Part shown: in pieces, positions 1,811-56,344 of the stretch
Layout of the letters: every line of letters begins with the position of its first letter
Position numbering within the stretch: the first letter of the stretch is position 1
Source: Lytechinus pictus
Taxonomy: Eukaryota
DNA length: 64,000 nucleotides
Assembly (NCBI RefSeq): GCF_037042905.1
Contig: NC_087260.1
Coordinates: 21,700,001 to 21,764,000, forward strand
Direction: 5' to 3'
The notes under the pieces: model-generated
What the model was told of the DNA's origin: nothing
The model's input: the letters and a program-made list of their open reading frames with translations, nothing else
Databases searched by the model: none
Position numbers and translations under genes: made by a program

Positions 1811-2073
1811 CCTTATATGCTCATCGAAATGTATTGATTTTCATACGATCAGTGGCGTAACTACGGGGGGGGCATGGGGGCACGTCCCCCCCCCCCCCCC
1901 CCATCGGCTGACCAAAAAAAAAAAAACGGGGAAAAGGAGAAAAAGAGGGAGAAAGGAAGAGTTATATGTTATGTTATGTTATATTACATAGAAACATTTT
2001 TTTCGAAACTTCATGAAACATAATTTTCTCAGGGCCTATATCTTCACTGATCCTGGTGCTTGCATTGTCTGTT

Positions 2074-2358
2074 TAATGTATTTTAAAGACGACTCGGCGA
2101 TTTAAAATGATTTATAGGTCGGCGAACAAAGCCAGGTCATGAAGGTGTTTGTAATTTGGAATGGCGCGGTTGACGAGGTGATACGTCACAATGGTGCGCC
2201 AGACGGTATTGTTTATGAGCACAATGACAATAATTTATACTGGGCGCAAGGAGCGCCCATATTTTGGCGCGCGCGCCTAGGCGAAGGCGCGAAAAATCCT
2301 TCATTTTAGTCTTGGCTTTCAACGGAGATGAACGTCCAAAATATTCGCTTGTAATTTT
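2074..2358 (+). repeat. Split direct repeat A1
   Basis: Matches 9284-9568 at offset 7210; one mismatch seen (GGTGTTT vs GGTGTAT). Confidence 0.95.
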
Positions 2359-3194
2359 TCTACAAAGTACAACGAGATCTACAAGAATTTTTGTTGAAAC
2401 CATCTTCGATCGGGAATCATCTTAATTTTGCTTAATGCAGCTGTAAATGCTGTCCGAATTACTTGAGGATTCTCTATTTCTTGCCTGGCCTAACGATTAA
2501 CCGTCTGCTTTGAACCGAGTTTTATACGACGGTATACGAGGAGCTACGCCTACGCTACGACTACGTGTTGTCGCTATAACTAGTAGCAGATCGGCTGGGT
2601 CCTAGAACTTTTTGGTTTCCGCAACGATGAGAAATTGACTCGAGCTGCTAGATGGAATTCCGTTCAACGACATACGGTCGACTGGGATTCATCATGATTA
2701 TGAGTATTGAATGTTACGGTAGTCAGAGCCCGAGTCAGAGCCGGGTCCTAGGCCTACTACTACTACTAGCTCCCGAGACCGAGTATGATGTGAAGCCTGT
2801 GGCTGAGCCGAGGCAACGGTCTGGATTAGCAGACGGAACGGGGTCGGTACCAGACAATTTACAAGTTCCAGTCTCTGCAACTGAGTGCAAGACCTAGCCT
2901 ATCCGGTGAGTACGGAAGCAGGAATAGATCTAGGCTAGACTCAGTCTGGATTAGTGTAGTAGTAGGTGCTAGTACTACTAGTAGTAGGCCTACGCCTAAC
3001 TTAAGCCTATTGTTAGTTAGGCTTGTTGAATGATCGAGGCCTGCTACAGTCTTACACATACAGAGTAACAGAGTACAGTGATAGATACTGCTAGTACAAG
3101 TAGTAGGAGTATCGGGGTGATTTGTAACTTGTGGAGTTTTCTTTAGACTAGCGCAGGTAGGCCTGCCTACGGCTAGGCCCTAGTCTGACTCTGA

Positions 3195-3230
<36 letters not shown>

Positions 3231-6200
3231 GTCAGAAGTCGATTAGGCCTAGTTACGCTCTGAGTCTGACACAAATCTCTTTCAATTTCATGGCCCTTCG
3301 ATACCCCCCCCCCCCGGTTTTTTTTCGTTAGCACGCGAAGATCCCATTCCCATGTGCTAGGCAAATTAAATGCCTAGGCCCTAGTTAATGTAGTCAGGCA
3401 AACAGGGGGGGGGGTCTATTTGCCATTTGGCTTGCTAACGCTATTGGGGTCTGTACTGACTGTAGGTCAAATGTCAAGCCATAGATCCTAGACATAACTT
3501 GGACTTGGCCTGGAATTAATTTTAAACTTGGTCCAAGTGTTTTAATTACGATCATGATGGAAAAGGGAGGGGTTAGCTTCAAAATTTAAGCACAGGCCTA
3601 GCCTGGCCTAGACCTGGTCCTACTTGACTACTTGTTTTGGTGTCTGAACCAGGTCCAGGTGTGTCATGATGGAGATTGGAGGTTTTGAGAATGAGTTCAA
3701 CAATTTTAATTTAACGTTGGTTACCGTAGCGTATATTTATAGGCGTAGGCCCTAGTGCATCTGCATGACTAGATCTAGGGCCTAGGCCTATGGTTATACG
3801 GTTGTAATATACAATTTCGAAGCCGGTGGTTTGGATTTGGCCCAGTGAATGCCAACATTGCGGCTCTAAAATTTCGGCTAGTATCGATACTATGTATACG
3901 ATGGAAAATCAAAAGGAAATTGTAGTCTATATTGGCGCTAACACTAACAGCTTATTTTAAAAGGCCTAGTTATGGACTAGGTCTAGGCTAAGATCTATTT
4001 AGGACCATGATTAATTTTAAGCCACCGTTTTTGAAAAATGGTGAGAATAATAAAATAAATAGAGGGTCTACTAGTGATTGGCGAAAAGTTCAAACTTTTC
4101 GGTATTATTGATAAATAATTGAGTGGGAAATGTCACTTTGTTATAAATTTACAAGTAGTCTACTGCAGACACTGCAGCAGTGCATGGTGACACCACAGAG
4201 TGAAACTAGGCTCGGCCTAACGTTAGATCTACTTACATTAGACGCGGTTTTACATGTCTGTTTGGGGATAGACCCTATTATCAGATGGTTAAGTTAGGCC
4301 TATAATTTGACCTCTATGACGTTTTCTGGATTATGGGCCAGCGAGAGCTGTGTTCTTGGTCGCAAAATTATGTGGATAGACCGGTAGCGGTAATAATTAT
4401 AGATTCTACTCAGCTTTCAAATGTTATTGTTGAATCAGTCATTATTTTGGAAAGTAGCAGATGATGCTTATCATTATGATTATGTCATTAGCATTTTGTA
4501 ATAATACACTTTGATAAGCATTATAAATATAAATACCTCCACTTGCACCAAGCAGTTCTGTTTAAACATGTACGCCTTGAAAGGAGGTTGGTTTTGGGAA
4601 TTCACTTTGCATGAATTAAATGCCGATGCTTGGTAGAACTGTGAGCTCGAAGTTTCGAGGAAACATGGTACATGTAAAAGTAAACTTACCATGCACATGA
4701 TAATCGGATGTAATTTCGAATTAGCTTGGAATCCCCAATTTAGTTTAGATTGAAGTCAAGGGGTTCAACGAGCAGTTATTATAATAGTATGGGCCTCCTA
4801 ACAAGGAACCTTGATTTTTTATGATTTTGTATGGTTTATATCTTGTGGAAATGAAACTGAAAGAATGGAAATGCTTAGGCCCTATTGGAATTGAATTAAT
4901 TGTTTTTATATAGCGCTTTATCAACCTCTAACCGCTCAAAGCGCTTCAGAATTGAACCTTACACCTCATGGTTCAAGATATATATCAAATGAAATAGGCC
5001 TATTTGGCTGATCAATGATTTGAACTGAGATAATATCGATAGTATCATTTAAAATAATGATAATATATTATAGATTTGGTATACATGATCAAGGCGGCAA
5101 ATAAAATAATAAATAATGATGATGAGCTTATAATTATGAGCTAATTTCTTGAAGGCATTCAGTAGAAATTGATGTAGTCGATTGACATGGGCCTGTGTTG
5201 CATGGGCCTGTGTTGGAAAGTGTCTGAAATCTTGTACCATACTGTCATTTCCCCTTTGTTGCTTCGGGGGACACAATATACGGATGCCTTAATAATGCAA
5301 TAAGCCATATAGGTATACTGGCCAATCAAACGAAATTTACCGATTGCTCAATCAGAAACCAGGTTCCAAAAAGTATATCTTCTTCTTGGAATTGGACAGC
5401 GTGTGAAATATTCGTGCTGGTGGCCCGTTGATTATGAAAATGTATCTAATGGGCTGGATGCAGTAATTTGGCTTGATTATTTCTGCAGTGGTGTAGAGGT
5501 AAAACCGAATACTGAAATAAGAATAATAAATAATAAAAATGATAAGAGAAGTTATAGTCTAAAATGGAACAGATTATTTGAAGCTTATTGAATCTGGTTT
5601 TGAAATATTGTCGAAGTTGCAACACGCACATATATGCAGATGATATTGCATCGCTGGTTGGGGTTATACTGTAAGGAATTTGAAAATAGCAGTTATAAAT
5701 GAAACATAAGGAGCAGGACTAATGATTACTCTGTGAAGGCGGTTTCAGATGTTTCGGGAAGCTGCTCGTTTCGTATAAAGCTAAAAATTTAAGTACGCGT
5801 ATATTGGAAGCTATGATAAAGAGGGCGAAGGATATACATGTATATATTTTATTTGTTATTTCTGAATAAATGGTACAACTCCATAGGCATTTAGGGGGTT
5901 CAATTGAGCCCCCCCCCCCCCAATACTGGTGAGGATTGTAATCTTCCAAATTGTTTAATATGCTTTTCACTAGTGCTTGTGTGTTTGCAGTAGATGAAGA
6001 AATGTTCATAACCTCTGTTATATACGTCCTTCGGTTTTCGGGCCTACAAGAGTGATAAATCGAAAAGGATAGCAGAGGGACAGACCCGTTTTGGTACTAG
6101 ATATAGAATTTGGTGTTCTGCCCAGGCTTTTTTCTTCTTTTCTTTTGCAGTGCCGGATCTTGGATGAAAGGGATTCAAGTGGGCTACTGCGAGGCAAGGT

Positions 6201-7011
6201 AGGCTGGCAGGAAAGTCTGATGACAATTAGACGGTAGACCTACTATTTCCTGACCAGTTAGCTTAGAGTCCATAGTAAAGGATGTCATTTTGGGGCGTTA
6301 ATACGCTCTTATAATAAATAGAACTGAACTGGGTATTGTTGCCAGCAATGACTCTAATTGGAGCAGTGGTCAACGTCTTCATCTTCATAGAACTAATTTA
6401 CCGACAAGGTGGTTTTGATACGTATTCCAAGGAATAGAGGTTTTTCTTCAGTCAAAAAACTGGTGAACAAACATTTTAGCCTTCAAGCAACAGGGAAAGA
6501 TCATATTTGAAACATCATGATACAGTGGGCTGTCTTGAAGGATAAGTTCATATAATATGAGGATGAATTCGTCATGATTTCAGTTTCAGACTTTTTATGA
6601 GGTCCCCCATATTGTTCACTTGGATGGGATTGGAACTTGAACATGTTGAACATATGAAGAAAGCCCTTTGTACGTATGCTTTTGCCAACAAGAATGGAAC
6701 ATATTGTTCAGGATAAGCATATATGAATGTATCAATGTATAAGCCACTTCAAATTTTATTCATTATCGTTTGAAGGACTACTTGTTCGGATGTTATTTAA
6801 TTTTTGAAATAAATAATTATTTCATGGATGTGGTGAGGATGATAAAACAATAAAAAGGCAGTCATGCTTTACGTTGATATGTGAAAACATTATCGAAATG
6901 ATTCATCCCGGGTAAAGTTCCAGTTTATGTTAACTGGTTCTTAGTTTAACAGCATATTTAATTGAGGAGTGTTGCTCTAACCGAGTAGTCCTGATCGGGA
7001 AGGTTTCATAT

Positions 7012-7843
7012 TCAAATTAGTTTTAGTGCCTTCAATTATCATGATTATACTCCATGTGTTATATGGGGTTATTCTGTGGATGTTACGCAAGCTTTCAGTT
7101 TTTATTTTATCTCATTTCAACAGAACAATTTACAAAATCCATTATAACTCAGGAATGGTATAATTATGTATTTGTTGGAATTAAGTGTGAGGTGACTAAC
7201 TAAATGCTGTGGTTGGATTTTAATTGATCGATTGTCTACAATTGAATTATATTTGTGCATAGGGTTAAATCATGCACTGTTATAAATGGCAAATGGGGCA
7301 ACAAGAAAATGGCAGTACCTCAGTGCGGCATGCATTGCCGGTTTAGCAATGTTGGGATGCTTCTATGTGTTAACTATATGGTCAAACTGATGGCGTTCGG
7401 CCATCAAATTAGTTTTAGTGCCTTCAGTTATCATGGTTATACCCCATTATCCAATGGGTTTTTTTTTGTGGATGTTACTCAAGTTTTCAGTTTCAGATTT
7501 TATTTTATCTCATTTCTAACAGAACAGTATACAAAATCCATTAAAATACAATTATAACTCAGGAATGGTATGATATGTATTTGTTGGAATTAAGTGTGAG
7601 GTGACTACGATAGCTAAATGCTACCTAAATGCTAAATGCTAAATGTTGGATTTTATTGATCGATTGTCCACAATTGAATGATTTGTGTGCATAGGGTTAA
7701 ATCATGCACTGTTATAAATGTATGGTAAATTGGGCAACAAGAAAGAGGCAGTACCTCAGTGCGGCATGCATTGCTAGTTTAGCAATGTTGGGATGCTAGT
7801 ATTTGTTAATTATATTAAGGTCAAACCGATAGCGTTCAGCCAC
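7012..7843. repeat. Diverged ~400-bp tandem duplication inside the SDR element
   Basis: 7012-7403 and 7404-7843 both start TCAAATTAGTTTTAGTGCCTTCA and are collinear with small indels. Confidence 0.9.
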
Positions 7844-8547
7844 CATTGATAACTTATCAAAATTAGTGATGCAATGAATTTCAATTTTGAAGCTTGCAAT
7901 ATGTTTGTATCAAAACCATGATACTTAAAATTGCATATTATCTTGTCTTCCTTCATATGTTTTGTTTAGTTTTGTGCATGGTAATCAGATCTTAATTGTG
8001 AAGGAAGTTCTGACACGGTTTATGTTTAATGTATTTCTATTGGGAGATTGTTTCCAACAATTGAATACATAGAAGTGTTTTCCATGCTCTCATTAAACTT
8101 GAGATGGATATTTGTTCATATACTTGTATTGAATAATTCTATCTGGTTTTTAAATGTCATTTCATGCTGGTTTAAAAGGGGGCTGGTATGTTGGTCAAGG
8201 ATAGAAAGCAGGTATTCTGGAAAAAAAAAAAAAAATAATAATAATATCTAGAGGCAAAGAATGCAAGCCTTCAGGTAATTGTGTCATGAAAGACAGCGAC
8301 GTCAAAGGTTGTACAAAGATGTATATTTTTGATTCATTTAAATTTATTGATGGAGGGCTTGGAGGCCTTCTTGATTATGCATGATAACTGATTTAGCTTG
8401 GCCAGCTAACACAAAACTGGAGTAAATTATGAACGAAGGCTTAAAAATGAATGAAGTGTTTTGGCGGCCGATCATATATATAAAATATATTCTCGTTTGG
8501 CGGTAATTTGTCAAATTATGCCGCCTAAACACTGTTGTCATAAGATA

Positions 8548-9288
8548 TATTGGCATGGAATATGTTCTTTAATCCACAATGGTCACTTTTGCAAGGTGTG
8601 TAAAGCAGTGAATGATATTTTAGCCTCTAGTTATTAGATTTTCCACTTTGATGCCATGTACGTTGATTAATATTTCATATTGAATCGGGTCCTCATTCGG
8701 TACCTAGACGAAGGGGATTTATTTATAACTTTACATAGTACTTTAGGAACGCAATTGTAATTTGAATGTAAGGGTGTCACGCTCGAACTTTCAGTTTAGG
8801 CCTCACCTGATCTCATAGGCGGGGAGGCTGGTATTCTGTATACATTTATATTTTTCGTGAAATTTTGGCCTCACCCAAGTTCTCATGCGGGAAGGCTGGT
8901 ATATATATGTATATTATATGATATAAGTATGCCATCTGTAATCCACCGATTTGCCGATAGCTCATACATGTAGTTAATAGCTGTGCTGGTATTCCTGTCC
9001 GGCTAGCAGAGAACCAGTGGGAAAGCAGCCGTGAAATTTAACGTTGAATTTTCTGGGAGGGGGGCCTTCTAGCCGGGGGTTTAACCCCCCTTCGGGGAGC
9101 TAAACAAAGGCTATCGGTTGGTTCCAGACATACATGAATGTAAGTCTATAATCAGAGGTATTCATATCCATGTTTTATACTTATGTGATTGTGACACCAG
9201 ATTCGGAAAAGTGTTCATCTCTATTGAATAAAGCCACGACATAATCGCATATTATTTTGTTTTGTCATTTTGTTTGCCGAGTATAATG
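8548..9288 (+). repeat. Split direct repeat B1
   Basis: Matches 10024-10764 at offset 1476, near identical; AATAAA at 9227-9232. Confidence 0.95.
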
Positions 9289-9568
9289 TATTTTAAAGAC
9301 GACTCGGCGATTTAAAATGATTTATAGGTCGGCGAACAAAGCCAGGTCATGAAGGTGTATGTAATTTGGAATGGCGCGGTTGACGAGGTGATACGTCACA
9401 ATGGTGCGCCAGACGGTATTGTTTATGAGCACAATGACAATAATTTATACTGGGCGCAAGGAGCGCCCATATTTTGGCGCGCGCGCCTAGGCGAAGGCGC
9501 GAAAAATCCTTCATTTTAGTCTTGGCTTTCAACGGAGATGAACGTCCAAAATATTCGCTTGTAATTTT
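9284..9568 (+). repeat. Split direct repeat A2
   Basis: Copy of 2074-2358; overlaps the end of B1 by TAATG. Confidence 0.95.
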
Positions 9569-10023
9569 CCCACCTCCTCCCCAACAACCATCCATGTCAA
9601 TGTTACGTTTGGGTCAAACAATGTTGGAATGTTTTAACACATGCAATGGGGAAGGTCGAGAATAAAGATACTCTAGGTATCATTCAGAGTTGATTTGTGT
9701 TTTATTGGAGTGTATAGCTCGTTATGAATGGAATAACGGATGTAGAATTGTTATATAATAATTTGGACATTTGAATTATTTTACTTACATGAATTTAATG
9801 TTGATTTATATAACGAAACACGAATTCAAATCCGGGGGCAGTTTGCCTGGTCGCACATCAAAACAATATAAAGATCGTCGTGTATTTAGAAATGTGGGCC
9901 GTAAGGGAATTTTATCCTTCTGATCTATTTTGGTCTGTGGTCAGGTGGGTTTTCGCCCTTACCCGTTTTTGGGACTGGGTGTTCGTTATATTTTGGTAAT
10001 TCACTTGAATAGAGTTCTCATAT

Positions 10024-10764
10024 TATTGGCATGGCATATGTTCTTTAATCCACAATGGTCACTTTTGCAAGGTGTGTAAAGCAGTGAATGATATTTTAGC
10101 CTCTAGTTATTAGATTTTCCACTTTGATGCCATGTACGTTGATTAATATTTCATATTGAATCGGGTCCTCATTCGGTACCTAGACGAAGGGGATTTATTT
10201 ATAACTTTACATAGTACTTTAGGAACGCAATTGTAATTTGAATGTAAGGGTGTCACGCTCGAACTTTCAGTTTAGGCCTCACCTGATCTCATAGGCGGGG
10301 AGGCTGGTATTCTGTATACATTTATATTTTTCGTGAAATTTTGGCCTCACCCAAGTTCTCATGCGGGAAGGCTGGTATATATATGTATATTATATGATAT
10401 AAGTATGCCATCTGTAATCCACCGATTTGCCGATAGCTCATACATGTAGTTAATAGCTGTGCTGGTATTCCTGTCCGGCTAGCAGAGAACCAGTGGGAAA
10501 GCAGCCGTGAAATTTAACGTTGAATTTTCTGGGAGAGGGGCCTTCTAGCCGGGGGTTTAACCCCCCTTCGGGGAGCTAAACAAAGGCTATCGGTTGGTTC
10601 CAGACATACATGAATGTAAGTCTATAATCAGAGGTATTCATATCCATGTTTTATACTTATGTGATTGTGACACCAGATTCGGAAAAGTGTTCATCTCTAT
10701 TGAATAAAGCCACGACATAATCGCATATTATTTTGTTTTGTCATTTTGTTTGCCGAGTATAATG
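10024..10764 (+). repeat. Split direct repeat B2
   Basis: Copy of 8548-9288, ending GCCGAGTATAATG. Confidence 0.95.
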
Positions 10765-12101
10765 AGATATAATCCCGTTGTACTAAAACCTCCCGTTTTC
10801 AAGTCAATATACACCAAACTCGCACTTCGAGTTATTATTGTTTTATGTAGTGACATATGCTTCTTTTTCATGACTACTTGAAGTGATTGCCCCATGTTAA
10901 GATCTTAATATAAAACATTTCCTGTCCGTGATTACGTCTGCATTAGTGGATTGGTGAGATATGTCTGCTCTCCATGAATACGGATCAGTCCTTAAAATGT
11001 CCCCTTTTCTGATCTGAATATCAAAAAATGTTAGCTCGCGCTCGCATCACTTGGTTAGTGAAATACGTATGGTCTTTGAGAATTCCTACAAACAAGCCTT
11101 AAAATGCCCCTCTTCATGTCTGAATTATCTAAATTTTTAGTTCGCGCTCGCAATATTTGATTAGTGATATGCGAATGATATTCATGATTACAATGACTAC
11201 AAGAGCTTCATGTATTTAGATGTAATTCTAACAAAATCAGCAAGCGCTTGGCACTCACATTAGATGACTATGGTGTGAAATGTAGACCCTTAATGGATTC
11301 CTAAAATATAGTCCTTAAAATCTCCCTGTTTGGGGTCAATATATACAAAAATTTAAGCTCGCGCTCCGCGCTCGCATTGTTTAGCGAGATATGTACGTAT
11401 CATGATTACAAAAATTTGATTATAATGTCCCTTTTTAGGTCTGAATATCAAACAATTTTCAGCTCGCGCTTCGCGCTCGTATTATTTGATCAGTGAGATA
11501 CATATCAGTTTAATAGCGTTGTCCTTAAAATGTCTCTATTAGGTCAGTACACCTGGCAACTGAGCGCGCTTCGCGCGCTCACGAAGTGACTCAAAATGTT
11601 TGCTGGTGCCCCCCCCCCCCAATGCCGCGACCCACGGTACGCCACTGCATACGATGTTGATTGTCTCGAGTGGCTTTTCTGCTATTAATCTTTTATAATT
11701 CCATGTGCCGTTCTCAGGGGAGGTTTCAGGGCAAAGAGGGGCTTACAAAAATCTTTGAATTCTCTGAATCAAAAAGGTCTTTAAAAAGGAAATAATAACA
11801 CTCCAGATTTATTTTGATGTTCAGCCGGTCAACAGAACCCCTTTTATTAGACTCATAATTATTATGGAATTCGTCATGGTGCAGAAGTAAACAACACAAG
11901 AAGTTACCTTTTGGCATCTGCAATTATTATAGGTTGAAAAATCTTGATAGGATATGTGCTAGCTCAAGTCAATCTGTTAAGTGTGACGTGCTGTTGTAAG
12001 GGTCCAGACGCTGTAAATGAACCTATTCATGTCTCTGTTTCCTTTCTACCTAGTCATTTCTATATAATATTGCCAATCTATTAAAAAAAGAAACACAACT
12101 A

Positions 12102-12464
12102 ATACCGTGTTTACACTTGATCGGCTTTTGGTTCAGAACCAAAAGCCGATGCAGAATCGGCTTTTGGTTTGCGTTTGTACACGTTGTTACAGCTCGCGGT
12201 TCAGAACCGCGAGCCGATGCAAAAACCTGAAATGATACGCACACCAACAATATACGTCATAATAAAGACAACACTGGATCCGTGCGCTTACAATTACATC
12301 ACAATGGTAAAGTAAATGAAATGCGCACAAATTGCCGATGCAGAATCGGCTTTCTGTTTACACGTTGTAAAAAAGCCGATTCTGCATCGGCTCGCGGTTC
12401 TGAACCTACTACTTTGGTGGTGCAAATTGCCGGTTCAAAAGCCGATTAAGTGTAAACATGGTAT
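12102..12464. mobile_element. MITE with ~28-bp TIRs and internal palindromes (PIF/Harbinger-like)
   Basis: ATACCGTGTTTACACTTGATCGGCTTTT ... AAAAGCCGATTAAGTGTAAACATGGTAT; TSD unclear. Confidence 0.75.
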
Positions 12465-14351: not shown

Positions 14352-15019
14352 TTACAATCTAGTGGAGATTTCTGCCCTGGTGACGTCATAAGCAAGATTA
14401 TAGACCCCTTGCGACTTCCATTCTTCTGTTAAAATGACGTCAGAAACTGTAGATGGGCTTCCTGCACCGTTTGCATGGTTTGTTTTCCTGGTTTGAACTT
14501 GGTGAATTTCCATAGATTTCTTCCACTTGCTGCGGGAAGGTGCACAGGAAAGAACACGCCAGATAGATTGATAAAACTTCTCGTGCGAGAGAGCGTACAG
14601 GAACGGATTGATGAGACTGTTTAGATGATACAGGCCTTGTGCGACGTGGAACTCGATGATGACGACGGATGGCTCCACGAGACGAGACCCTCCGAAAGCG
14701 ATCCACAACAAGGAAGCGATGTAGAATCCCTGGATGATCGCGAACAGGGAAACAACAAACACGGATGCGCGTAGCACGGCGTGCTTTTGTCTAGAGCGTA
14801 TCTTGCGCGTCGCGTCAGATACGCGTTCGTTTGCAACCCTTTCTTTCCAAATTGTGTACATTATTCCCGTGTAGCAACCAAAGATGATGAGTAGGGGGAT
14901 GACGTACATGAATATAGAGCCAAATGGGATCAAATATCTTGTTCTTGGTTCCATCCACGCTTCAAGCATGTTACCTCCAAATGGAACACCAAAGTATAAC
15001 CCTCCAAAGAAGAACGAAA
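14352..15019 (-). CDS. Kisspeptin-receptor-like GPCR paralogue 2, last coding exon (end of TM4 to C-terminus)
   Basis: Acceptor tttccttacatgtttgcag| at 15020/15019, phase 1; YVIPLLII (TM5); LNSLINPFLY (NPxxY); stop TAA 14354-14352. Spliced CDS 378+136+668 = 1182 nt = 393 aa. Confidence 0.9.
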
Positions 15020-15739
15020 CTGCAAACATGTAAGGAAAAAGAAACACATAACTTCAGTTGAGATAATTGGCCCGAATTCACAAAGGTGTTTTCGAAACCA
15101 TCGGTTGAACCCATGGTTTATGCAGATTTTCTTATCAATTACGCTTACATACCTCGTATAATAAAAAGAAAAATGTCCACTGCTGATGCGTGCTTTTGTC
15201 ACAGTGCGCCAAATTGACTTTAAAATCTGCATAATTATTGTTAGGAGCTTGATAATCTATTATCATTATTTTTATTGTTGTTGTTATTATTATTATAATT
15301 GTATCCTAGTTATTATCATCATCAATCATTACAATCATAGCTTTTATAATGATCAGTATTTATAAAATGCTAATGTCTATTCTTAGCGCTTTTCCAAATA
15401 AGAGAGGTATGCTATTCAATCTAATGAAGATATGAACATACACATATAGATTGGTAGTCCAACAATAAAGCGAATTCTAAAAGCACATTCTGCTGCCTTA
15501 GTTGAGTACGCCATTTTATCCATGAGTCCACTGTTTTGAAAAGTGGATTCATTAATAAAGATAGCATGCTTAACCATAGCAACAGGCGTTAATTTGGCGT
15601 ACTGTGAGTAAGCGCGGATCAGTATCGTCATATTTTTTAGATGTAATTTTAGGCCGATAGATCTTTCGTAAAGTAACGTCGACCTAATGATCTGTCCGCC
15701 AACTCTTCTGTGGCATTCGTAAATTCCCTCATTAGATCT

Positions 15740-17217: not shown

Positions 17218-17323
17218 CAAAAACTAAATAACAAAATCATCAAAGGTATACAGTTGTAGCAGTGATGATGACATTTTTCATATTCGTCAATAAAGGTTGA
17301 AATCATTTATTTTCGAATCTTAC

Positions 17324-17701
17324 CAATTCCATGTAATATACGAAAGCTTGCGGGATGTGGTATTCCGTTGGTTGGAAAGCCCCGATATAATACTCGTAGC
17401 AATTAAGCCCTGCTACAAACAGTAGCACCATCAGATCGGTGACTGCAAGATTCGCAAGGTACATGCTCGGAATCGTCCACATTTCTTTAGTCGCAAGAAT
17501 GATACCGATTACGAGGACGTTGGCGATGACCCCGAAAATGATGTTGAACAACGTGACGAAAAACATGATGGTGGAAAGAAGAATGGTCAGGTCGCATTCG
17601 TCTTCAAGGAAAACGAAAGTGCAGGAATGGTTGGCTACGGTGTCTGTCGTGTAAGACTCGTTCAATCCGATAGTAGTTGCCATTCTTGAAGTTGCATTCA
17701 T
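17324..17701 (-). CDS. Kisspeptin-receptor-like GPCR paralogue 2, first coding exon
   Basis: Acceptor gtctacag| at 17737/17736; ATG 17701-17699 (MNATSRM...); YLANLAVTD; donor TTG|gtaag at 17324/17323. Confidence 0.9.
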
Positions 17702-38520: not shown

Positions 38521-40633
38521 CCATTAATTTTATTTTACACACCATCACTCATGACTCACTTCCACTTACACACTCTTCCTTTCTCCCTCCTCCCCCCCCC
38601 CCCTCTTTCTCTATAGCTAGTTGATATATTAACATCGACCGATCTATCTATCTATCTATCTTTATGTACATCAGTCTACCTACCTATCTATATATCCACC
38701 TTTCTCTGTCTGTTTTTTTTTACTTTTTTTTAATTTCTCATGCGCAATATCTTATTGTATCTGTTTTCTTATGCGTTAAGGACAGACCAAAGATCATTTT
38801 GATATAAATATCCTAAACACAGTTATAAAGCAGACGTTATATCTCAGGTGTGATTTATTGTTTGTAACGGCATCCTAAGTGGATCATTATCAACTATTAA
38901 ATCACGATTTAGTCTTAGAGTCGTTTATAGAAACACACTAGCTGGAGTATAATTTTTTAAAGAAAAACCCACTTGAAATCAATCATCTTGACTTTTTTTG
39001 GGGGGGTTGTTCATTTTCAACATATCATCATATCGTCTTGTGGTCTAAAGTTCTGTCTAAACTTTTTGATATTTGTATTTAGGACTATTTTATTTTGTAA
39101 TATGTGGTAAAAATATATTTTGCATTTAAACATGTAGTATCTGATTAAAGACTAGATGATCTATTAATAGATAATTGTATTATTAATAAATCATATAAAC
39201 AAATGTGGAAGCTATTCGGGGTGAATGTACAGACATGGTATTCTATAAGAGGCTTGCCCGACAAAGCAACTTTTTTTGATAATATGCGTCACTCATGGAT
39301 GGGTAAATCGATATTTTATTATTTCGTTGATTTTTGTAAATTAATTTTATGACTTGATTTCTCAAATATAGGTATAACAATTTTAAATGTACTAATTGCA
39401 TTATTCACTTCCAATATTCAATTTCCATTATCTGATACTACTTCACTATAAGAGCTCAATCTTATACAACCATGCATGCAGAAATCGTTATCATTTCCTT
39501 TTAAACTCCAGTTCAAAATAAGGTGTGGCCGATTTCCGATGTTTCATTTATTAATGGTGGTAGATGAATATTTTGTATTTAATATTAAAACACAAGACCC
39601 AAATTTCTGTCAACTGTCAAAGTTAGTATAATGATCTTATCCATGGATGTGACCGTTTGTTTAATCCACAGAGCATGTCTTCCACTTCAAAACACTATCA
39701 TTTCCTGACACTATACCAAACCCATGATGCAGCGGAAAGAGCTAGGCCGGATGATATAACCTTGGTTTTCCACCGCTTCCAGGCCGGTTTCAGACCTATA
39801 TCTTCTCTGGTTAACCCACATGGTTCCAGAACGGATACCACCACCTGATATATACGATAATATTATGTGTATATCCGAAAGGCCAGTACTACAGCACTAA
39901 AAGGATTCGGGGCGTTCATCATTCCCTAGGCCTAGAAAAAAAAAGACCGTCATTGACTTTTTTAATATGTGACATTATAAACCAGAATGACATCAACGAA
40001 GGATATTGGGTGACACGAGCTTGGTGCTGCTCAGGCGCACACATAGAGGTTCTACATTTTTTAAAAGCCCGCATTTTTCTTGTCTCCGAGCATTTTTACG
40101 AACCATGCCACTTTCTTCACAATATCATATATCGAGTTACACCCGACCTGCCTATATACATGATAGCTCTTGACCTGATCGTGGTATGCGTATGAAAAAT
40201 TACATACATTCGTAATTTTATTTTACGACATGTACGACATTGATCGATTGAGAAAGTGATACTGATCGGTGTTTGAGTTTGTCACTCTCTAACTTGCCTC
40301 CCGCGGAAGATATACCTCTCACAATAACTGGATTCGATATCAGTAGTGACTTAATGCCAAGACAAGTGTGCACGAGTTTTATTTATTGCTCGACAACATG
40401 TGTTTATTAGATGAATAGATCATGTAATATAATATATATTGGGAACATAAACTGGGTACATTTATATATCATCTGTGCAGTTTCCAGGAATAGTATATCT
40501 CTGTGAAGGAACCCGCTGAAATTGGTTCATAAACTGTTTGCAAACCTTGTCACATTTGGAATTTCTTAAGCAGAATAGAAGGAGGGATTTGTGTGGATAT
40601 TTAAGACAGGATTTGATAGATCTTGAAGCGATC

Positions 40634-41785
40634 ATGGATAACGTGTCAATATCAACACCCGTCACTCACGGGACAATCGAGGTCATACACAACCTGAGCG
40701 CAAACGACATCGTCTCCATCGTCATGTACGTGATCATTGGGACGTTCGGTATCATCGGAAACACCCTTGTGATGATCGTCTTCGGATTGCTAACACAGAA
40801 GAAAAGTCAGGTGAATATGTTCATATTCGACCAGGCTCTTATTGACGGGTGCACCTCCGTGTTGCTCATCCTGTTCGGAGTCGTCAACGTGTTCAGACCG
40901 AAAATCATGGCCTTTGAAAAGGATATCGATGTCGGCAATGGCACCAACACCTCCAGCATTACGGGCCATTTCCTCTACCTTTCTCCGTCGACGGCGGAAT
41001 TTTTGTGTCGATTCTGGTGGTCGCGTTTCTTCCTCTTTGCATGTTTTGCCATCTCGACATGGAACTTGACGGTGATGTCGATAGAGCGGTACTTCGCAGT
41101 CCTTCATCCGATGACGTACTCCAGGAATTTTAGCAAGCGGCGCGCCATGATCATGATGGGATTGATATGGCTAATCGCTCCCATCATGCAGTATATCCCA
41201 ACGATTTTCCAGTACACATGTGGTCCTGGTTCATGTGCCTTCCAGGAATCTTGGTCCAATGCTGCAGGAATCGTCGTAGGATTGGCCTTGTTTGTCTGGG
41301 AGTTCGTCCTCCCTGTCTGTATCATGGCTTTTGTCTACTACAAGATCGTTACGGAGATGAGGAAAAAGAAAATGGCCTTGCGACAGAAGAAGAAGCTGGT
41401 AGATCCACCAAGTGCCACAAGCACCCCTACCAGGATGCCTAACAGAGGAGCCTCCAAGATTGTTCATCCCTCCAGTAATATTACCATGACACTATGCATC
41501 CTCTTCGCCGTCTACACCTTCTGCTGGGCGCCCAACCAGATTACCTTCTTGCAGTTCAACTTTGGAGGACCTCTGAACTTTACCGGTGCCTGGTATCATA
41601 TCACTGTGACCTTGGCGTTCTTGAACTGTTGCGTGAATCCCTTCATCTACGCTCTCAGGTTACAAAAGTTCAAGAAGGGTATGAACATGTTGATGAAGGG
41701 AAAGTGGCATCGGAGAACTCGGGAGAGCAGAGCGAAGATGACCGAATCGACCAGTTTCAATGGCATTGACTCGAATACTGTGTGA
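40634..41785 (+). CDS. Intronless class A (rhodopsin-like) GPCR, allatostatin-A/galanin-receptor-like, 383 aa
   Basis: First ATG at 40634 (MDNVSIST); seven hydrophobic segments; GN, QALID, TM3 Cys (LCRFW), ERY, W4.50, CWAP, NPFIY. Confidence 0.92.
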   Translation: MDNVSISTPVTHGTIEVIHNLSANDIVSIVMYVIIGTFGIIGNTLVMIVFGLLTQKKSQVNMFIFDQALIDGCTSVLLILFGVVNVFRPKIMAFEKDIDVGNGTNTSSITGHFLYLSPSTAEFLCRFWWSRFFLFACFAISTWNLTVMSIERYFAVLHPMTYSRNFSKRRAMIMMGLIWLIAPIMQYIPTIFQYTCGPGSCAFQESWSNAAGIVVGLALFVWEFVLPVCIMAFVYYKIVTEMRKKKMALRQKKKLVDPPSATSTPTRMPNRGASKIVHPSSNITMTLCILFAVYTFCWAPNQITFLQFNFGGPLNFTGAWYHITVTLAFLNCCVNPFIYALRLQKFKKGMNMLMKGKWHRRTRESRAKMTESTSFNGIDSNTV

Positions 41786-47695: not shown

Positions 47696-48918
47696 TTATA
47701 AGCCTTTCATGACTGCGCCGCGAATGCTACGGTAATACCTCAACATACCAGCGTCGTTAAAGTGGAACCCATCCGACGAGAAAAGTCTGCCGTGATTGAG
47801 TGCAAAAGAACGATGGCGCCAAAAATGCACATTAGGCAAACTTTCGAGAAACTTTGCGAGCAGCCGGTTGGTGTCCTGCACGTTCGAGTTGAAATTCGGC
47901 TTCCAATTCGGCACGAACAGACGAGGGATAATACCACATACGAGTACATGGCGAATGCCAGGTATGCGCGAAATACGAAGCGCCAGGTCGACAATTGAAA
48001 GCACCGTGGAATCGGTAGTCGCGCGCCCGTCACACAGGTCGTTGGACCCGAGATCTAGCACCACGGCATCTGGAGAGAGATTCCAGACGAGATCGAGCTG
48101 CGCTGCCGCGGAAAATACACTGCCCGGTTGATCGTGGCCGACATCGTGCATGAAAGTGAGAACGGAAGATTTCTCTAGACCGAGATTATCCCTCTTGGGA
48201 TCGGGCGCGATGTACTGATTAAGACGGCTGATGTAACTATGACCGAGTACAAGGACGACGGGCGATTCACGATCATCGCAAATTTCAGGAGAGCTGCTGT
48301 GAGAGCTTTGATCACATCCAGAATTGATTATGCAAACTCCCTGCTATGTGGTACATCTTCGGCTAACATCCAGCGACTTCAACGAGCTCAGAATCGTGCA
48401 GCCAAATTGGTATTCCTTGCCAAGAAGCGAGATCATGCCTCTCCCCTTCTAGATCAATTACACTGGCTCCCTGTCTATAAGCGTGTCACATACAAAATCC
48501 TCACCATTGCCTACAAATGCATCCATAATTGTGCTCCACCCTATCTTAATGACTTAATTTCTCTGTACCAGAGTGAAAGGCGTGGACTACGATCGGGTAC
48601 TGATACAACTCTGTTGGCAAGACCAAGAACTGCTACCTCCTCAGGGGACCGATCGTTCGCTGCTGCCGCGCCACGCCTCTGGAACCAGCTCCCCCGCTGC
48701 ATTCGTGAATCGTCATCTCTGGGAGCATTTCAGCGGTCATTAAAGACATTTCTTTTTAATAGTTAATTTATTTGTTATTTATGTATGTATGTATTTTGTT
48801 TTCACAATTTTGATTTTGCTCATTTTGTAAAGCGCTGTGATACAATCATTGTGAAGAGCGCTATATAAATACTTATATTGTATTGTATTGTATTGTATGA
48901 CATGCTTGAGGTAGACAT
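47696..48918 (-). pseudogene. SGNH/GDSL hydrolase ORF (205 aa when rejoined) of the transposon-associated type, interrupted by an L2 fragment
   Basis: Blocks VLVLGHSYISRL, VVLDLGSNDL and DGFH in one frame 48292-47696; removing 48293-48897 joins MSTSSMS (48918-48898) in frame to SPEICDDRE. Confidence 0.8.
48293..48897 (+). mobile_element. 5'-truncated L2-clade LINE fragment
   Basis: ORF2 C-terminus (SRIDYANSLL, LHWLPV, GDRSF, LWNQLP); AAGCGC..GCGCT tail and (ATTGT)n. Confidence 0.92.
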
Positions 48919-50369: not shown

Positions 50370-52380
50370 TCATCTATTTTCCATTAAAAACTCAATCAAA
50401 ATAAATACATACAAAATTCATGAATAGAAATCGGAAGGACCCCAAGAAAAGCATAATAAATAAATAATAATAAAAATAAATGATTAAGTATACCAGTATA
50501 CCATAGTATACAGAAATCATAAAACTATTAAACATAATTATATACAAATAGACATTTATAAATACATTTACATATTAAGTTCTGAATTACATTACTTTGG
50601 GAAAAAACGATAATCTAATATGAATTCAGAAGATATTTTTCAAGTTTTCCTTTGAAATTTTGTATTGAAATATATTGTATAATATCCTTTGGAAAAGAAT
50701 TCCATAATTTTGGACCAGTAAAAACAAATGTCTTCTGTGCAAACGATGTTTTATTCAGAGGTAAATGAAAGGAACTCGCCTGGCGAGTGAAGTGCTTATG
50801 AATTGTATCATTTTTTGCAAACATATCATTTAAAGGTAACAGTAATAGTTTATTGATAAACTTGTACATTAACTGTCCGAGTTGAAAAGAATATAAATCT
50901 TTAACTTTCAAGACTTTATTTCTCAAAAACAGAATATTTGTATGTGCCCTGAATTCTGCATGACTAATAATACGAATCACTCTTTTTTGTAATATAAAAA
51001 GTCTATTAAAATGAGAATTCGCTGCGTTACCCCATGCAACAACTCCGTAATTCAAGTAAGGTAAAATTAACGTTGAATTATAATGATAAATAAATATAAT
51101 GGGGTAAGAAGTGACTTCATTTTCTAATGACACCAATGTTGCTAGCAATGGTTTTACAAATATTATCAATATGTGCTTTCCAAGAAAGTTTTTCGTCAGT
51201 GATCAGTCCCAAAAATTTAGTAGATCGCACTCTTTGAATGACAGTATCATTTAAAATTACATCTTTTGGTACAGTCGTAATCTTGTTGCCATAAAGCATG
51301 TACCTAGTTTATTCTAGGTTAAGAGAGAGTTTGTTAGCTGTTATCCAATTAGAAACATTTTTTAGTTCGTCATTGAGTATTTGCATCAATTGCTCTGTGT
51401 CGGGGTGTGACAGAAATATATTAGAGTCATCAGCGAAAAGTAAAAATTGAAGCAATCTAGATGACATATCAATATCATTTATATTAGTAAAGAACAAAAG
51501 TGGGCCAAGAATGATGACCTGTGAAACTCCACAAAGGACAGGTTTACGTTCAGAAATATTACAATCAAGTAAAACGAACTGTGAACGCCCGGTTAGATAA
51601 TTCTTGAACCACTTTAGTGGTTCCCCTGTAATTCCATATTGAGAAAGTTTATAAATGATCAACTGTATCGAATGCTTTTGATAAATCTAAAAACAAACCA
51701 ATCGTATTTGAAGACTTGTCATAAGCTTTGGCAACTGTTTGAACTAAAGAAAGTATTGCATGGGAAGTGCTACTCTTTTCCCGGAAACCAAATTGAGTAT
51801 CGGATAGGATGTTGTGCTTTAAAAAAAAACATATGGTTCGTATGTGAACCAATTTTTCAAGAATTTTAGATAAGTTTGTAATCAATGAAATGGGTCTGTA
51901 GTTACTTGCTAAAGAACTATCACCCATTTTGAAGACTGGTATTATCGAAGAAATTTTCATTGATTTTCGAATATTTCCCGATGATACTGACAAATTGAAT
52001 ATATAAATAAGAGGTTCAATTATATAATTCATAGTTTTCTGTAGAAGGTTGTTATCAATGTTATCAAATCCTGCATTTTTTTTTAATTTTAGGCTAGATA
52101 TAATTCTAATTATCTCCTGTGTGTTCGAAGGAGAGAAAAACATAGAACTTTGATTTCTATCCCCCCCCCTAGATATTGATGAAATTAATGGGAGTTTGTT
52201 GATATACTTCTAGAGAGCTTAAATCCAACTTGTGAAAAATAATTGTTGAAAACATTTGCCATCTGAACTTTATCTTCAATAATAGAATCAGTATGCATAA
52301 GCTTAGTTATCTTTGAAAACTTTGGTCTATCATCGATGGTAGAATTGATAAATTTCCATGTTTTTTAAAGATCATTCTGC
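50370..52380 (-). mobile_element. Degenerate, 5'-truncated CR1-group (Crack/Daphne-like) LINE, RT region
   Basis: NYRPISL, QFGFR, FLDLSKAFDTVDH, GVSQ..LGPLLF, LFADDSN spread over four frameshifted ORFs (50615-52143). Confidence 0.9.
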
Positions 52381-52555: not shown

Positions 52556-55500
52556 AATCATCTTGTGAAGGGTATCACCTATCATCTCAAGAAGAGTACG
52601 AATCACTTATCACTTTTGTTGTGCGCCTCCATAGAGGTAGCCTCTTTCATTTAGGGCTCTGTTCATTTTGTTGATTTTTTGCCTTATTTTGAGGTTATCT
52701 TGAATTTAGTTGTTAACACTGCATTCTGTATATGTCAAGGATCTTGCTAGACCTTTTTTATTCAATATTTTGGTGAGTAAGCTCAGTATTGAGAAGTTGT
52801 ATTTTATGTACCATATCTGAACTTGCTCAACACTGCCATTTTCAGTGTCCTGTGTTACACTCATGCCTCTATTCACTGTCTATTTTACTTATTGTTCAGG
52901 CAGTTCAGTTTGTACTTCACTTCTGCCTCTTTAATCACAGACAGTAGTGACATTCCATCTACAATGGAGGGGATTAAGTTCCTTAGGTTCTTCTTTTGTG
53001 TATCATTGATTGTATTTCTTTTGAATATTAACCATGTATTCACTCTGCCTTCTGATGCCAGAGTTACCTATTCATGTTCTGTTATTCCTGTATACAGGCA
53101 TCTGAAGTACTGTAGTAGGCCTATTGCTTACTATAGCAATACAAGTGCCTGTTTTCAGTTAGCCATTTTACTATCAGGTGATATTCATATGAATCCAGGC
53201 CCACGCTATGATGTTGATTCATTTAAATCTACTAATGAATATTGTAACAGTTCACAGTCAGATCGTATTCAATATGATGTTCTCACTCTCCATCAGTTAG
53301 ATAGGAAGCCTTCTCATCATCTTCCTCTGACTGTTTGGAAAAGGATTTGTGACCTTGGTATCCGCCGACATGGTCCTACTCATCGCGGACACAGGCGTAT
53401 GGTCTCAAGGCCGCATCCCCTTCCTTCGAGGCCTACTGGTACTCGTTTAGGTTTATGGAATGCACGATCCTTGACAAACAAGATTGATGTAGTGACTTCT
53501 TTGATCATAGATAATGATATTGATGTATTAGTTATCACTGAGTCTTGGTTTTCAGGTGATCACAGAGATGACCCTACTATTGCGCAGTTGAAATTGTCCC
53601 TTCCAAATTACAACATTATCAATCGTCCCAGGAAGACTAGGGGAGGAGGTATATGTGTCCTCTACAGGTCCACAGCACGCTGTGTTGTAAATGAAACCTT
53701 CAATTGTTCCTCATTTGAATTTTTGGATCTAACCGTCCATCTTACCCCATCATCTCCTGTTAAACTGTATTGCATTTACCGCCCACCCCAATCCTCCCGG
53801 CACACTTTTTCAAGTGGTGATTTTCTTGAAGAGTTTCTCACTCTTCTGGAAAGTGCTGCTGTGGATGTTCATCCTCCTATTCTTCTTGGTGACTTTAATA
53901 TTCACGTGGATGATTCTTCAGACAATTTTGCTAGATCTTTTCTTAATGGAGTGGAAGCCCTTGGATTCAAACAACACATCAACGGGCCTACACACAAGGC
54001 TGGTCATACACTCGACCTTATCCTTAGTAGAAATTCGGAAGATATTATCTCCCAGCATAGCATTTTACCATCTCTGCCATCTGATCACTCTGCTATTATA
54101 TGTACTATTAATCTCAAAGGGCCCCAAAACCCCAAGAAGAAAGTGACTTTCAGGAAACTTTCTAACATTGACCCTAAATATTTTAGTCTGGATGTTAAAG
54201 ATGTCTTAGATTCCATTCAATTTCCCTCTTGCCCATCTGAGGCTGCTTCTCTGTATAACGACTGTCTTGGTAAACTGATGGACAAGCACGCCCCTCTGCA
54301 GACTGTGACTGTTACAGTTAGACCAAAAGCTCCCTGGTTCTCTGCTGAAATTAGGGAGGCACGGCGACTGAGGCGACGCGCAGAACGTCGAATGATGAAG
54401 TCTGGCCTGCAGGTTGATAAGACATTATATCGTCAAGAATGCGAAACTTACTACAATCTCCTCACTGATGCCAAATCAAAATACTTTAGATCTGAAATCG
54501 CTAACGCCGACTCCAAACAGCTATTTAGTATTGTACAGAAACTCACCACCCCCTCTCAGTCCTCCATTTATCCTGAACACTCATCTGCTTCTGATCTCGC
54601 CAACAAATTCAGTGAATTCTTTAGCAAGAGGATCAGTGATATTGTGTCCTCTTTTGCACCTGACGTTCCTAGTGATCAACAACATCCTGTGGGCTCTTTG
54701 AATTGCAAAATGAGTGAGTTTACTCCAGTGACTGAAGTTCAACTTCGCCATCTCATCAAGTCATTACCACCGAAGTTATGCAGTCTTGATCCTCTTCCAA
54801 CTTGGTTGCTCAAAGACTGTATTGATGAACTTCTACCGCTTCTCATAAACATTATCAATTCATCACTCACAACAGGTGTTGTCCCTGAATCATTCAAATC
54901 ATCACTAGTTCTTCCTCTGTTGAAAAAGCCCAATCTTGATCCGAATGACTTTGGCAATTATCGCCCTATCGCCAACCTGCCATTTGTTAGCAAGGTTTTG
55001 GAGAGAATCGTCGCATCCCAGCTCATGTGCTATGTGGACAGTCATCATTTACTTCCTGAGAAGCAGTCAGCATATCGCAACTTTCATTCAACAGAAACGG
55101 CTCTCTTGAAAGTACTCAACGATCTACTGCTTACCGTCGACAAGGGTAACGAAGCTGCACTCCTTCTACTGGACTATTCTGCGGCGTTTGACACTTTAGA
55201 CCACTCAGTGTTGCTCCAGCGTCTTGCACATGACTACTCCATTACCGGAACGGCTCAAAATTGGATTGAGTCATACCTGCAAGATCGTACTCAGCGGGTG
55301 ATTATCAATGGAACTTTCTCAGCACCTTTCGCTTTGAGCTGCGGAGTCCCCCAAGGTTCTGTTGTGGGCCCTCTCCTATTTCTTCTGTACACTGGTCCTC
55401 TCGCAAAAATTATCACTAGCCATCGGGGTGTGAGTTATGAGTTATGCCATGTATGCAGATGACACGCAAATCTACGTATCCATGGCATCCGACCAGAAGA

Positions 55501-56286
55501 CATATGCTGTTAATCTACTGAGTGACTGCCTCAAGGACATCAAGGTCTGGTCAGCGAAGAACAGACTCCGTCTCAACGAAGCCAAATCAGAACTGGTACA
55601 TCTTTCTCCGCAATTTAGAGCTACGGAGCCTCTGCCAGACTTCAATATGGGAGAGGGCATACTTAAGATGTCTGACTCTGTCAAAGACCTTGGTGTCACT
55701 TTAGACAAGCACCTTACCCTCCAGCCACATATCAGGAACATCTGCAAATCAGCATCATGGGGTTTATTTAGGATTGGTAAGGTCAGGCGACTACTCGACC
55801 AAGCCTCTACTGAAAAACTCATTCATGCCTTCGTCTCATCCCATCTAGACTATTGCAACTCCCTCTTTGCCGGCCTCCCAATTTCTTCCATCTCTCCCCT
55901 CCAGCGAATCCTCAACACTGCAGCGAGAATGGTAACCTTGAGCAAGAAACACGAACACATCACCCCTATTCTCCGATCACTTCATTGGCTTCCGGTTCAC
56001 TCTCGCATAACGTTCAAAATTCTACTCATTGTATACAAAATTACCCATAATATGTCACCCAAATATCTCCAAGACCTTATTTCCCTTCGTTCTTCCTCTT
56101 CTGTCAGATCCTTACGTTCATCATATTCCAATAATTTAATTCATGGCCCTCGCACTAAGACCCGATATGGTGATCGTGCATTTTCTGTAATTGCTCCCAC
56201 CCTCTGGAATAAACTCCCAATTCATATCCAAAATGCTCCCTCCGTAGAAATTTTCAAATCGTCACTTAAAGCTCACCTTTTCTCAT

Positions 56287-56344
<58 letters not shown>

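Follow-up and report, generated by a model that had tools for sequence, protein, structure and literature searches.

A candidate folded single-strand attachment site at the internal repeat junction of a non-coding DIRS-order retrotransposon

Positions 9274-9310 of the stretch of DNA analysed here (64,000 nucleotides, hereafter the window) form the B1/A2 junction of an 8.7-kb non-coding element with split direct repeats. The attachment site represented by this junction may be a folded single strand of DNA, similar to integron attC and CTX attP(+) and used as such by a recombinase, a reading that we hold to be about evenly balanced on the basis of insertion flanks, predicted folds and related families. 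The element lies on the forward strand in the order A1-internal-B1-A2-spacer-B2, that of split-direct-repeat elements. A1 (2077-2358) starts at TG and holds the upper stem and 3' arm of a predicted hairpin; the non-coding internal region (2359-8544) has a longest stop-to-stop frame of 125 aa; B1 (8545-9286) ends in ...GCCGAGTATAA; A2 (9287-9568), delimited by sequence comparison, is followed by a spacer (9569-10019) that adjoins the junction in 47/47 cases; and B2 (10020-10762) closes the element with ...ATAA, host DNA starting again from 10763. In the window copy, A1 and A2 are 99.3% identical over 288 bp, and B1 and B2 99.6% over 745 bp. Among 36 complete elements, the divergence of paired repeats is 0.05% inside a copy versus 0.5-1.6% between copies, and this far lower value inside copies indicates that the repeats are rebuilt at each jump, as they are in split-direct-repeat tyrosine recombinase (YR) retrotransposons. 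A genome-wide search (812 Mb) with the pattern of two inverted arms around TAATG found at this junction returned 47 exact matches, all from one family, and none with the reversed control, while the sequence of the A start gave 128 matches with at most 3 mismatches, of which 100 were examined.

We are very confident that the family belongs to the YR retrotransposons. Ngaro/PAT-like elements of the order DIRS have split direct repeats arranged as A1-[ORFs]-B1-A2-B2 (PMC4157794, PMC9210276, PMC8969392, PMC8547959). The present element resembles them in its repeat order, its near-identical repeat pairs, the absence of a target site duplication (TSD) and the existence of solo A-B units, and a spacer between A2 and B2 is also present in the autonomous families of this genome. 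Unlike them, it contains no ORFs over 8.7 kb, offers no protein by which to assign it to Ngaro or to PAT, and has no DNA in common with the autonomous families fetched. The 8 longest of its 43 frames had no match in a Pfam search, and screening found neither a long ORF in the window copy nor an element-matching ORF in 7 further copies. The element therefore lacks the gag, RT/RNase H and YR ORFs of autonomous members, as well as the MT of PAT and the SGNH hydrolase frequent in Ngaro elements, which have no MT, and its longest frame of 125 aa, Pfam-negative, excludes it from the autonomous Ngaro or PAT elements. It is a new non-autonomous member of the known order DIRS and, judged from sequence, likely a non-autonomous YR retrotransposon of the Ngaro/PAT type. 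TOC1 of Chlamydomonas reinhardtii is likewise described as a non-autonomous DIRS retrotransposon (PMC9940879), but comes from a green alga.

Other forms of the family were also observed. Twenty unpaired A starts correspond to solo A-spacer-B units and to deleted or longer copies, none of them autonomous. The solo units, which consist of A-spacer-B or of A-B and measure about 0.7-1.6 kb (L135, L137, L139, L142-L148, L152 and L153), keep the end rules of the element and may have arisen by deletion between A1 and A2 or be mini-elements that move on their own. In three different families (L058; L130/L164; L210), copies carry one more A-spacer-B unit in tandem (A-internal-B-A-sp-B-A-sp-B). One long copy carries a 1232-aa open frame (L156:204-3899, reverse strand), whose sole Pfam match is a weak Rab5-bind and which is probably a nested insertion. 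The internal region of the window copy includes a diverged tandem duplication of about 400 bp (7012-7842, 81%).

The host of the window copy is a DNA transposon that is itself non-autonomous (1850-11647, forward strand). It has short terminal inverted repeats and is flanked by an 8-bp duplication (1842-1849 and 11648-11655) from which we presume a hAT-type origin. The right part of this host transposon has 2526 candidates in the genome, and all 14 paralogues read for the empty site are uninterrupted, with the core present once. The ends therefore stem, as the original prediction proposed, from a crossover between the junction and a core in the target, rather than from a TSD. A palindromic repeat lies at 12102-12464, another copy of which is the insertion site of L031 and provides a second readable empty site. 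Further along the window are a LINE-type endonuclease/RT ORF pair (52793-56288, forward), another RT fragment (51649-52209, reverse) and a GDSL/SGNH hydrolase frame (47696-48343, reverse), a domain also found in Ngaro elements here. Rhodopsin-family GPCR frames (40520-41785, forward; 14352-15053, reverse) and a duplicated segment (230-529 and 17306-17605, 89% identical) are present as well, suggesting that the insertion may be surrounded by a receptor gene cluster.

The flanks of the family resolve the crossover. At 65 left ends, the three bases left of it (2074-2076 in the window copy) are TAA in 60 cases, TAT in 4 and CAA in 1, followed by TGTATT in 64/65. The 57 right ends all finish in ATAA, after which the sequence is variable (first base T in 35, A in 15, C in 4 and G in 3) and is never TGTATT. 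One junction row of L116 was left out of these data, and one L116 right end is shifted by one base in the alignment. Core deviations are thus confined to left ends (5/65 vs 0/57), and the same type of census gave the same result in an autonomous Ngaro family, with 5/17 deviating left ends (TAA in 12/17) vs 0/16 at an invariant right end (16/16). Five deviations among 195 sites greatly exceed the 0.05% divergence accumulated after insertion, so they derive from the target; there is therefore one crossover position, TAA^TG (9286/9287), of which we are practically certain. The target preferences that pass Bonferroni correction are TAA itself, A(-4) in 45/65, G(-8) in 27/65, G(+2) in 24/57 and T(+1), giving the consensus G(-8)...W-TAA^(T)(G), in which G(-8) matches G9279 of the B end. 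No TSD extends beyond the shared core, and the junction motif is common to element and target, in line with the known model for the order, in which the 3-bp junction of a circle recombines with an identical motif in the genome and leaves no TSD (PMC3266345, PMC7192593). The surroundings of the crossover may also resemble bacterial core sites.

The sequence of 9274-9310 is as the original prediction gave it, and TAATG lies at 9284-9288 in the junction and, where that prediction placed it, at 2074-2078 and 10760-10764 at the element boundaries. The prediction had taken the site to mark the attachment point, which the end counts bear out. It had also regarded TAATG as the target preference of the recombinase. 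This part holds as a preference, since TG after the core is enriched (17/57 right ends; also 6/16 in the autonomous Ngaro family, despite an element start of TA there), and not as a requirement: the flank alignment finds TAATG at both ends in only 16/56 two-ended copies, the near-invariant part being TAA. A strict TAATG target is thus ruled out, and the occurrence of TAATG at the right end of the window copy is partly luck.

The same count bears on the inverted arms noticed at the junction, GCCGAGT (9276-9282) and ACTCGGC (9302-9308), which are indeed perfect inverted 7-mers 19 bp apart and which had been taken as recombinase sites, TAATG being the required target. Arms of 6-7 bp are present in all 47 junctions, and L044, in which the upper stem is mutated, is predicted to switch to arm-arm pairing, so that an alternative fold is possible. 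Nevertheless, the flank census largely refutes this version, which we consider very improbable. The arms are asymmetric with respect to the crossover (-11..-5 and +16..+22) and are not echoed in the targets, where the mean match is 1.51 and 1.65 of 7 vs 1.46 and 1.48 expected. In a second subfamily, the inner arm pair is lost (T9282A) without compensation among the arms, and C9305T is common in another organism's contigs among the matches listed. No equivalent arms were found at the five autonomous split-repeat junctions screened. Their pairing probability is at most 0.02 in DNA folds vs 0.8-1.0 for a longer hairpin, although one RNA fold of the opposite strand gives 0.38. Of 1200 arbitrary points of the element, 91 (7.6%) lie between the halves of a perfect 7-bp inverted pair, and 18 (1.5%) between those of a pair with at least 5 G/C. 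Moreover, the overlap of a YR core is 6-8 bp, which a 19-bp spacer does not fit. The 7-bp arms are therefore unlikely to be the working pair.

The B end is instead predicted to pair elsewhere in A, likely with a second TCGGC copy and not with the ACTCGGC arm. Of the two TCGGCGA copies in A, the second (9329-9335) matches the B end better. In DNA folding, the junction strand forms a 28-pair hairpin (9269-9340, -16.8 kcal/mol, z -5.0). The predicted 5' arm of its lower stem (9269-9286) is the B end, with the left 7-mer and the TAA core, and the 3' arm (9322-9340) lies in A and carries the second TCGGC copy. Between them, the upper stem and loop (9289-9319) consist of nine pairs (9289-9297 with 9311-9319) and a 13-nt loop (9298-9310), into which the right 7-mer falls. 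The predicted lower stem stops exactly at TAA, which puts the crossover at its top, just before a 2x2 internal loop (9287-9288 and 9320-9321). This coincidence of stem end and crossover base leads us to propose that the element was likely pasted in from a folded single strand.

Several observations make it quite likely that the hairpin is maintained by selection. The fold is kept in 46/47 junctions, the exception being L044. T9282 pairs with A9326, and subfamily 2 carries T9282A together with A9326T, a compensatory change from T-A to A-T, while its C9333T turns a G-C pair into G.T. This covariation within the family is one event, and 31/500 shuffles score as high. In contigs of another organism, T9275C, A9335G, A9324G and C9333T (unphased, among the matches listed) all keep pairing on this strand, and C9305T falls in the loop. 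The fold is rare and not unique, with z <= -4 reached by 5/216 windows of the element.

The junctions of other YR families of the genome provide a broader comparison. The autonomous families fetched were PAT-like (RT, MT, YR), Ngaro-like (RT, YR, with an SGNH/GDSL ORF in two families) and DIRS1-like (inverted repeats and ICR), and their crossovers were set from the flanks (for L097, from the right end only). On the RNA-sense strand of the internal junction, the crossover is preceded by AA in 11/13 families and by AC in 2/13, whose targets are xAA. DIRS1-like termini have been tabulated as NTT (PMC3266345), the complement of the xAA found here. Ten of the 13 YR families, DIRS1-like included, have junction folds with z <= -2.9, and in folding families the 5' arm mostly has an internal loop or bulge 0-2 nt away from the crossover. 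Two Pat1-type families have no significant fold (L124, z +0.4; L214/L217, z -0.9); L089 shows the same shape at only z -1.3, and the junction-spanning stem of L121 forms with RNA parameters only. When three further split-repeat families were fetched after the hypothesis had been fixed, two fitted (L182 and L206) and one missed. The DIRS1-like junctions show 7 pairs with two-sided changes in 8 distinct rows, and 0-1/500 shuffles score as high, a count that takes the structure from one row and is inflated by the kinship of the rows. Finally, stem mismatches are G.T rather than A.C by 31:8 on the strand written xAA^ first (24:4 without the two non-folding families), although this bias and the shuffle counts overstate independence because the families are related, and the forward strand of the present element is G/T-rich.

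Further features of these loci are worth recording. In the Pat1-type family of L214-L217 and L222, the B1-A2 junction lies between the RT and YR ORFs. In one Ngaro family, L131, L133, L170, L171, L177 and L180 have both ends intact, and no internal B1-A2 block was found in the stretches covered. L128, L129 and L132 carry DUF3504 and YR ORFs without RT and may be Crypton-type elements or derived genes.

The G.T bias is explained equally well by G.U pairing in RNA, and since the favoured folding strand is RNA-sense, a function in RNA is a real rival. The hairpin, with the B end pairing with A, would act in self-priming, template switching or packaging; the stem top would set the element end during reverse transcription, and the recombinase would act on ordinary DNA. 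Both the bias and the lower energy on the RNA-sense strand, in split-repeat and DIRS1-like families alike, speak for such a role, and Poulter and Goodwin, cited in PMC7192593, suggested that a hairpin at the 3' end of DIRS-1 mRNA serves as primer. We regard this as the main rival, though rather unlikely. By itself it leaves unexplained the AA before the crossover in targets, the G(-8) common to the target and the B end, and the one-sided inheritance of mismatches. It also needs a transcript ending at the element end, while two RNA runs of low depth gave no start or end peaks, their sparse reads falling mostly on A-spacer-B and apparently coming from one read-through locus.

The one-sided inheritance also weighs against a canonical double-stranded YR core. 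Such a core would lie on a double-stranded circle, with TGTATT as the 6-bp overlap between two 11-bp arms (9276-9286 and 9293-9303); both strands would be exchanged and the heteroduplex repaired almost always towards one strand. The proposed arms are symmetric at 7/11 positions, a value reached at 1.4% of 8400 element positions, TT follows the 6-nt gap in 5/8 split-repeat families (the present one counted in), and the preferred target G(-8) falls inside the left arm. In addition, L036, whose A1 and A2 differ at just one of 256 sites, carries the base of its target at that site (+5), hinting at an occasional heteroduplex across the 6-nt overlap. In contrast, 55/56 informative left ends show no target base within +1..+6, as would follow from the exchange of one strand or from biased repair, L036 being the one that does not fit. 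Homology in the overlap is not required either, TGTATT being found in 0/57 targets, and the compensated 28-pair stem has no explanation in this scheme, which we regard as rather improbable.

A second argument against a double-stranded circle comes from the internal junction. A circle of A1-internal-B1-A2-spacer-B2 contains two junctions that are identical for hundreds of bases on both sides, and a crossover at the internal one would yield the order A-spacer-B-A-internal-B. Such permuted insertions were found in 0/47 elements, the spacer following the junction in every case. Because the internal junction is never used, local sequence alone is insufficient to define the site, and the reactive junction must differ in state, not in local sequence. 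A terminal junction that is single-stranded, folded or still open would fit these data, and a linear intermediate fits too.

The folded-site reading can be put together as follows. The element RNA would be reverse-transcribed by an autonomous helper of the Ngaro/PAT type, and the end-to-start junction would be rebuilt with the internal B1/A2 copy as its template. Only this rebuilt junction would be single-stranded and fold into the 28-pair hairpin. A borrowed recombinase would then cut the hairpin at the top of the lower stem, TAA^TG, and exchange one strand pair with a double-stranded TAA target, replication or repair finishing the insertion. DIRS-1 cDNA is reported to be single-stranded, antisense and able to complete integration (PMC7192593). 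Given that the favoured strand here is RNA-sense and the reported cDNA antisense, the split-repeat elements would have to pass through a plus strand or a cruciform.

The predicted structure resembles integron attC, whose folded strand has a paired box, an unpaired spacer, a second stem and a variable loop and exchanges one strand with a double-stranded target; the cut in its 5' arm follows AA, between A and C of AAC, next to the unpaired spacer (PMC3458562, PMC2727003, PMC4792948). The junction, too, is predicted to fold, with covariation in support, into an imperfect hairpin that has all four of these parts, and its crossover follows AA at the top of the first stem, the flanks fixing this position and not the strand cut. 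The attC sites, however, are bacterial and need the I2 helix of IntI and extrahelical bases, and their use as single strands has been shown by experiment, whereas here it is inferred. The element is not an integron attC site proper, as its predicted upper stem has no unpaired single bases and the YRs of five autonomous families match Xer-type models weakly or not at all. CTX attP(+) offers a second likeness, with a folded strand, a mismatched overlap, a single strand-exchange pair and XerC/XerD, which lack the I2 domain; it differs in using host Xer and a fixed dif site, whereas the target here is any W-TAA (PMC3442271). Within the order DIRS, the element resembles DIRS1-like elements in that a short junction motif recombines with the same genomic motif, but those have inverted repeats and an ICR instead of split repeats, and passages of the papers that describe them place the trinucleotide on a double-stranded circle and mention no hairpin as recombinase substrate, whereas the flanks here narrow the trinucleotide down to one crossover point (PMC3266345, PMC7192593).

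We also searched the genome for a helper, with Pfam PF00589 and one YR protein query. The YR searches scored 98/200 and 120/182 candidates, and 10-kb stretches around 53 YR places plus 30 search loci were compared with the element (16 upstream stretches were used solely for DIRS1-like left ends). None of the 53 YR stretches and 30 search loci shares DNA with the element beyond simple repeats, so that the partner tyrosine recombinase assumed in the original prediction was not identified among the YR loci fetched. In the Ngaro family of L130, the B end resembles that of the element and the target preference is the same, but the two have no alignable DNA in common. The YRs of five autonomous families gave weak matches to XerC/XerD and Cre or nothing, and none of these helper-type YRs matched the model specific for integron integrases.

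The trinucleotide junction is already known for the order, and the folded-site reading was not found in the literature searched. No link between DIRS/Ngaro elements and integrons, and no junction hairpin, emerged from this shallow search, which extended to neither the original Ngaro paper nor the 2005 and 2015 reviews, where the fold may be described. New here are the large flank census, the extension to DIRS1-like and PAT junctions, which share one polarity, the two families that do not fold and the lack of permuted insertions. In the prevailing model of YR integration, a double-stranded circle recombines at the trinucleotide, while the circle junction was not amplifiable and the cDNA was single-stranded (PMC7192593). 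As a tentative generalization, to which we give somewhat less than even chances, Ngaro, PAT and DIRS1-like elements and their gene-less dependants may all integrate through attC-like folded single-stranded DNA, cut after a conserved AA at the top of the first stem, with one strand exchanged, which would make this a eukaryotic system of single-strand recombination; this would explain both the single-stranded DIRS-1 cDNA and the unused internal junction. The 72-nt junction is a substrate on which integration can be tested, since its crossover is fixed, compensatory variants of it occur naturally, and 65 left plus 57 right ends define the consensus of its targets. Should the folded-site reading prove false, the junction would still be a well-resolved one, though ordinary for a non-autonomous member of the order DIRS. 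Should it hold, structure-specific single-strand recombination, as in integrons and CTX phage, would extend to animal genomes and would there require a target of very few bases.
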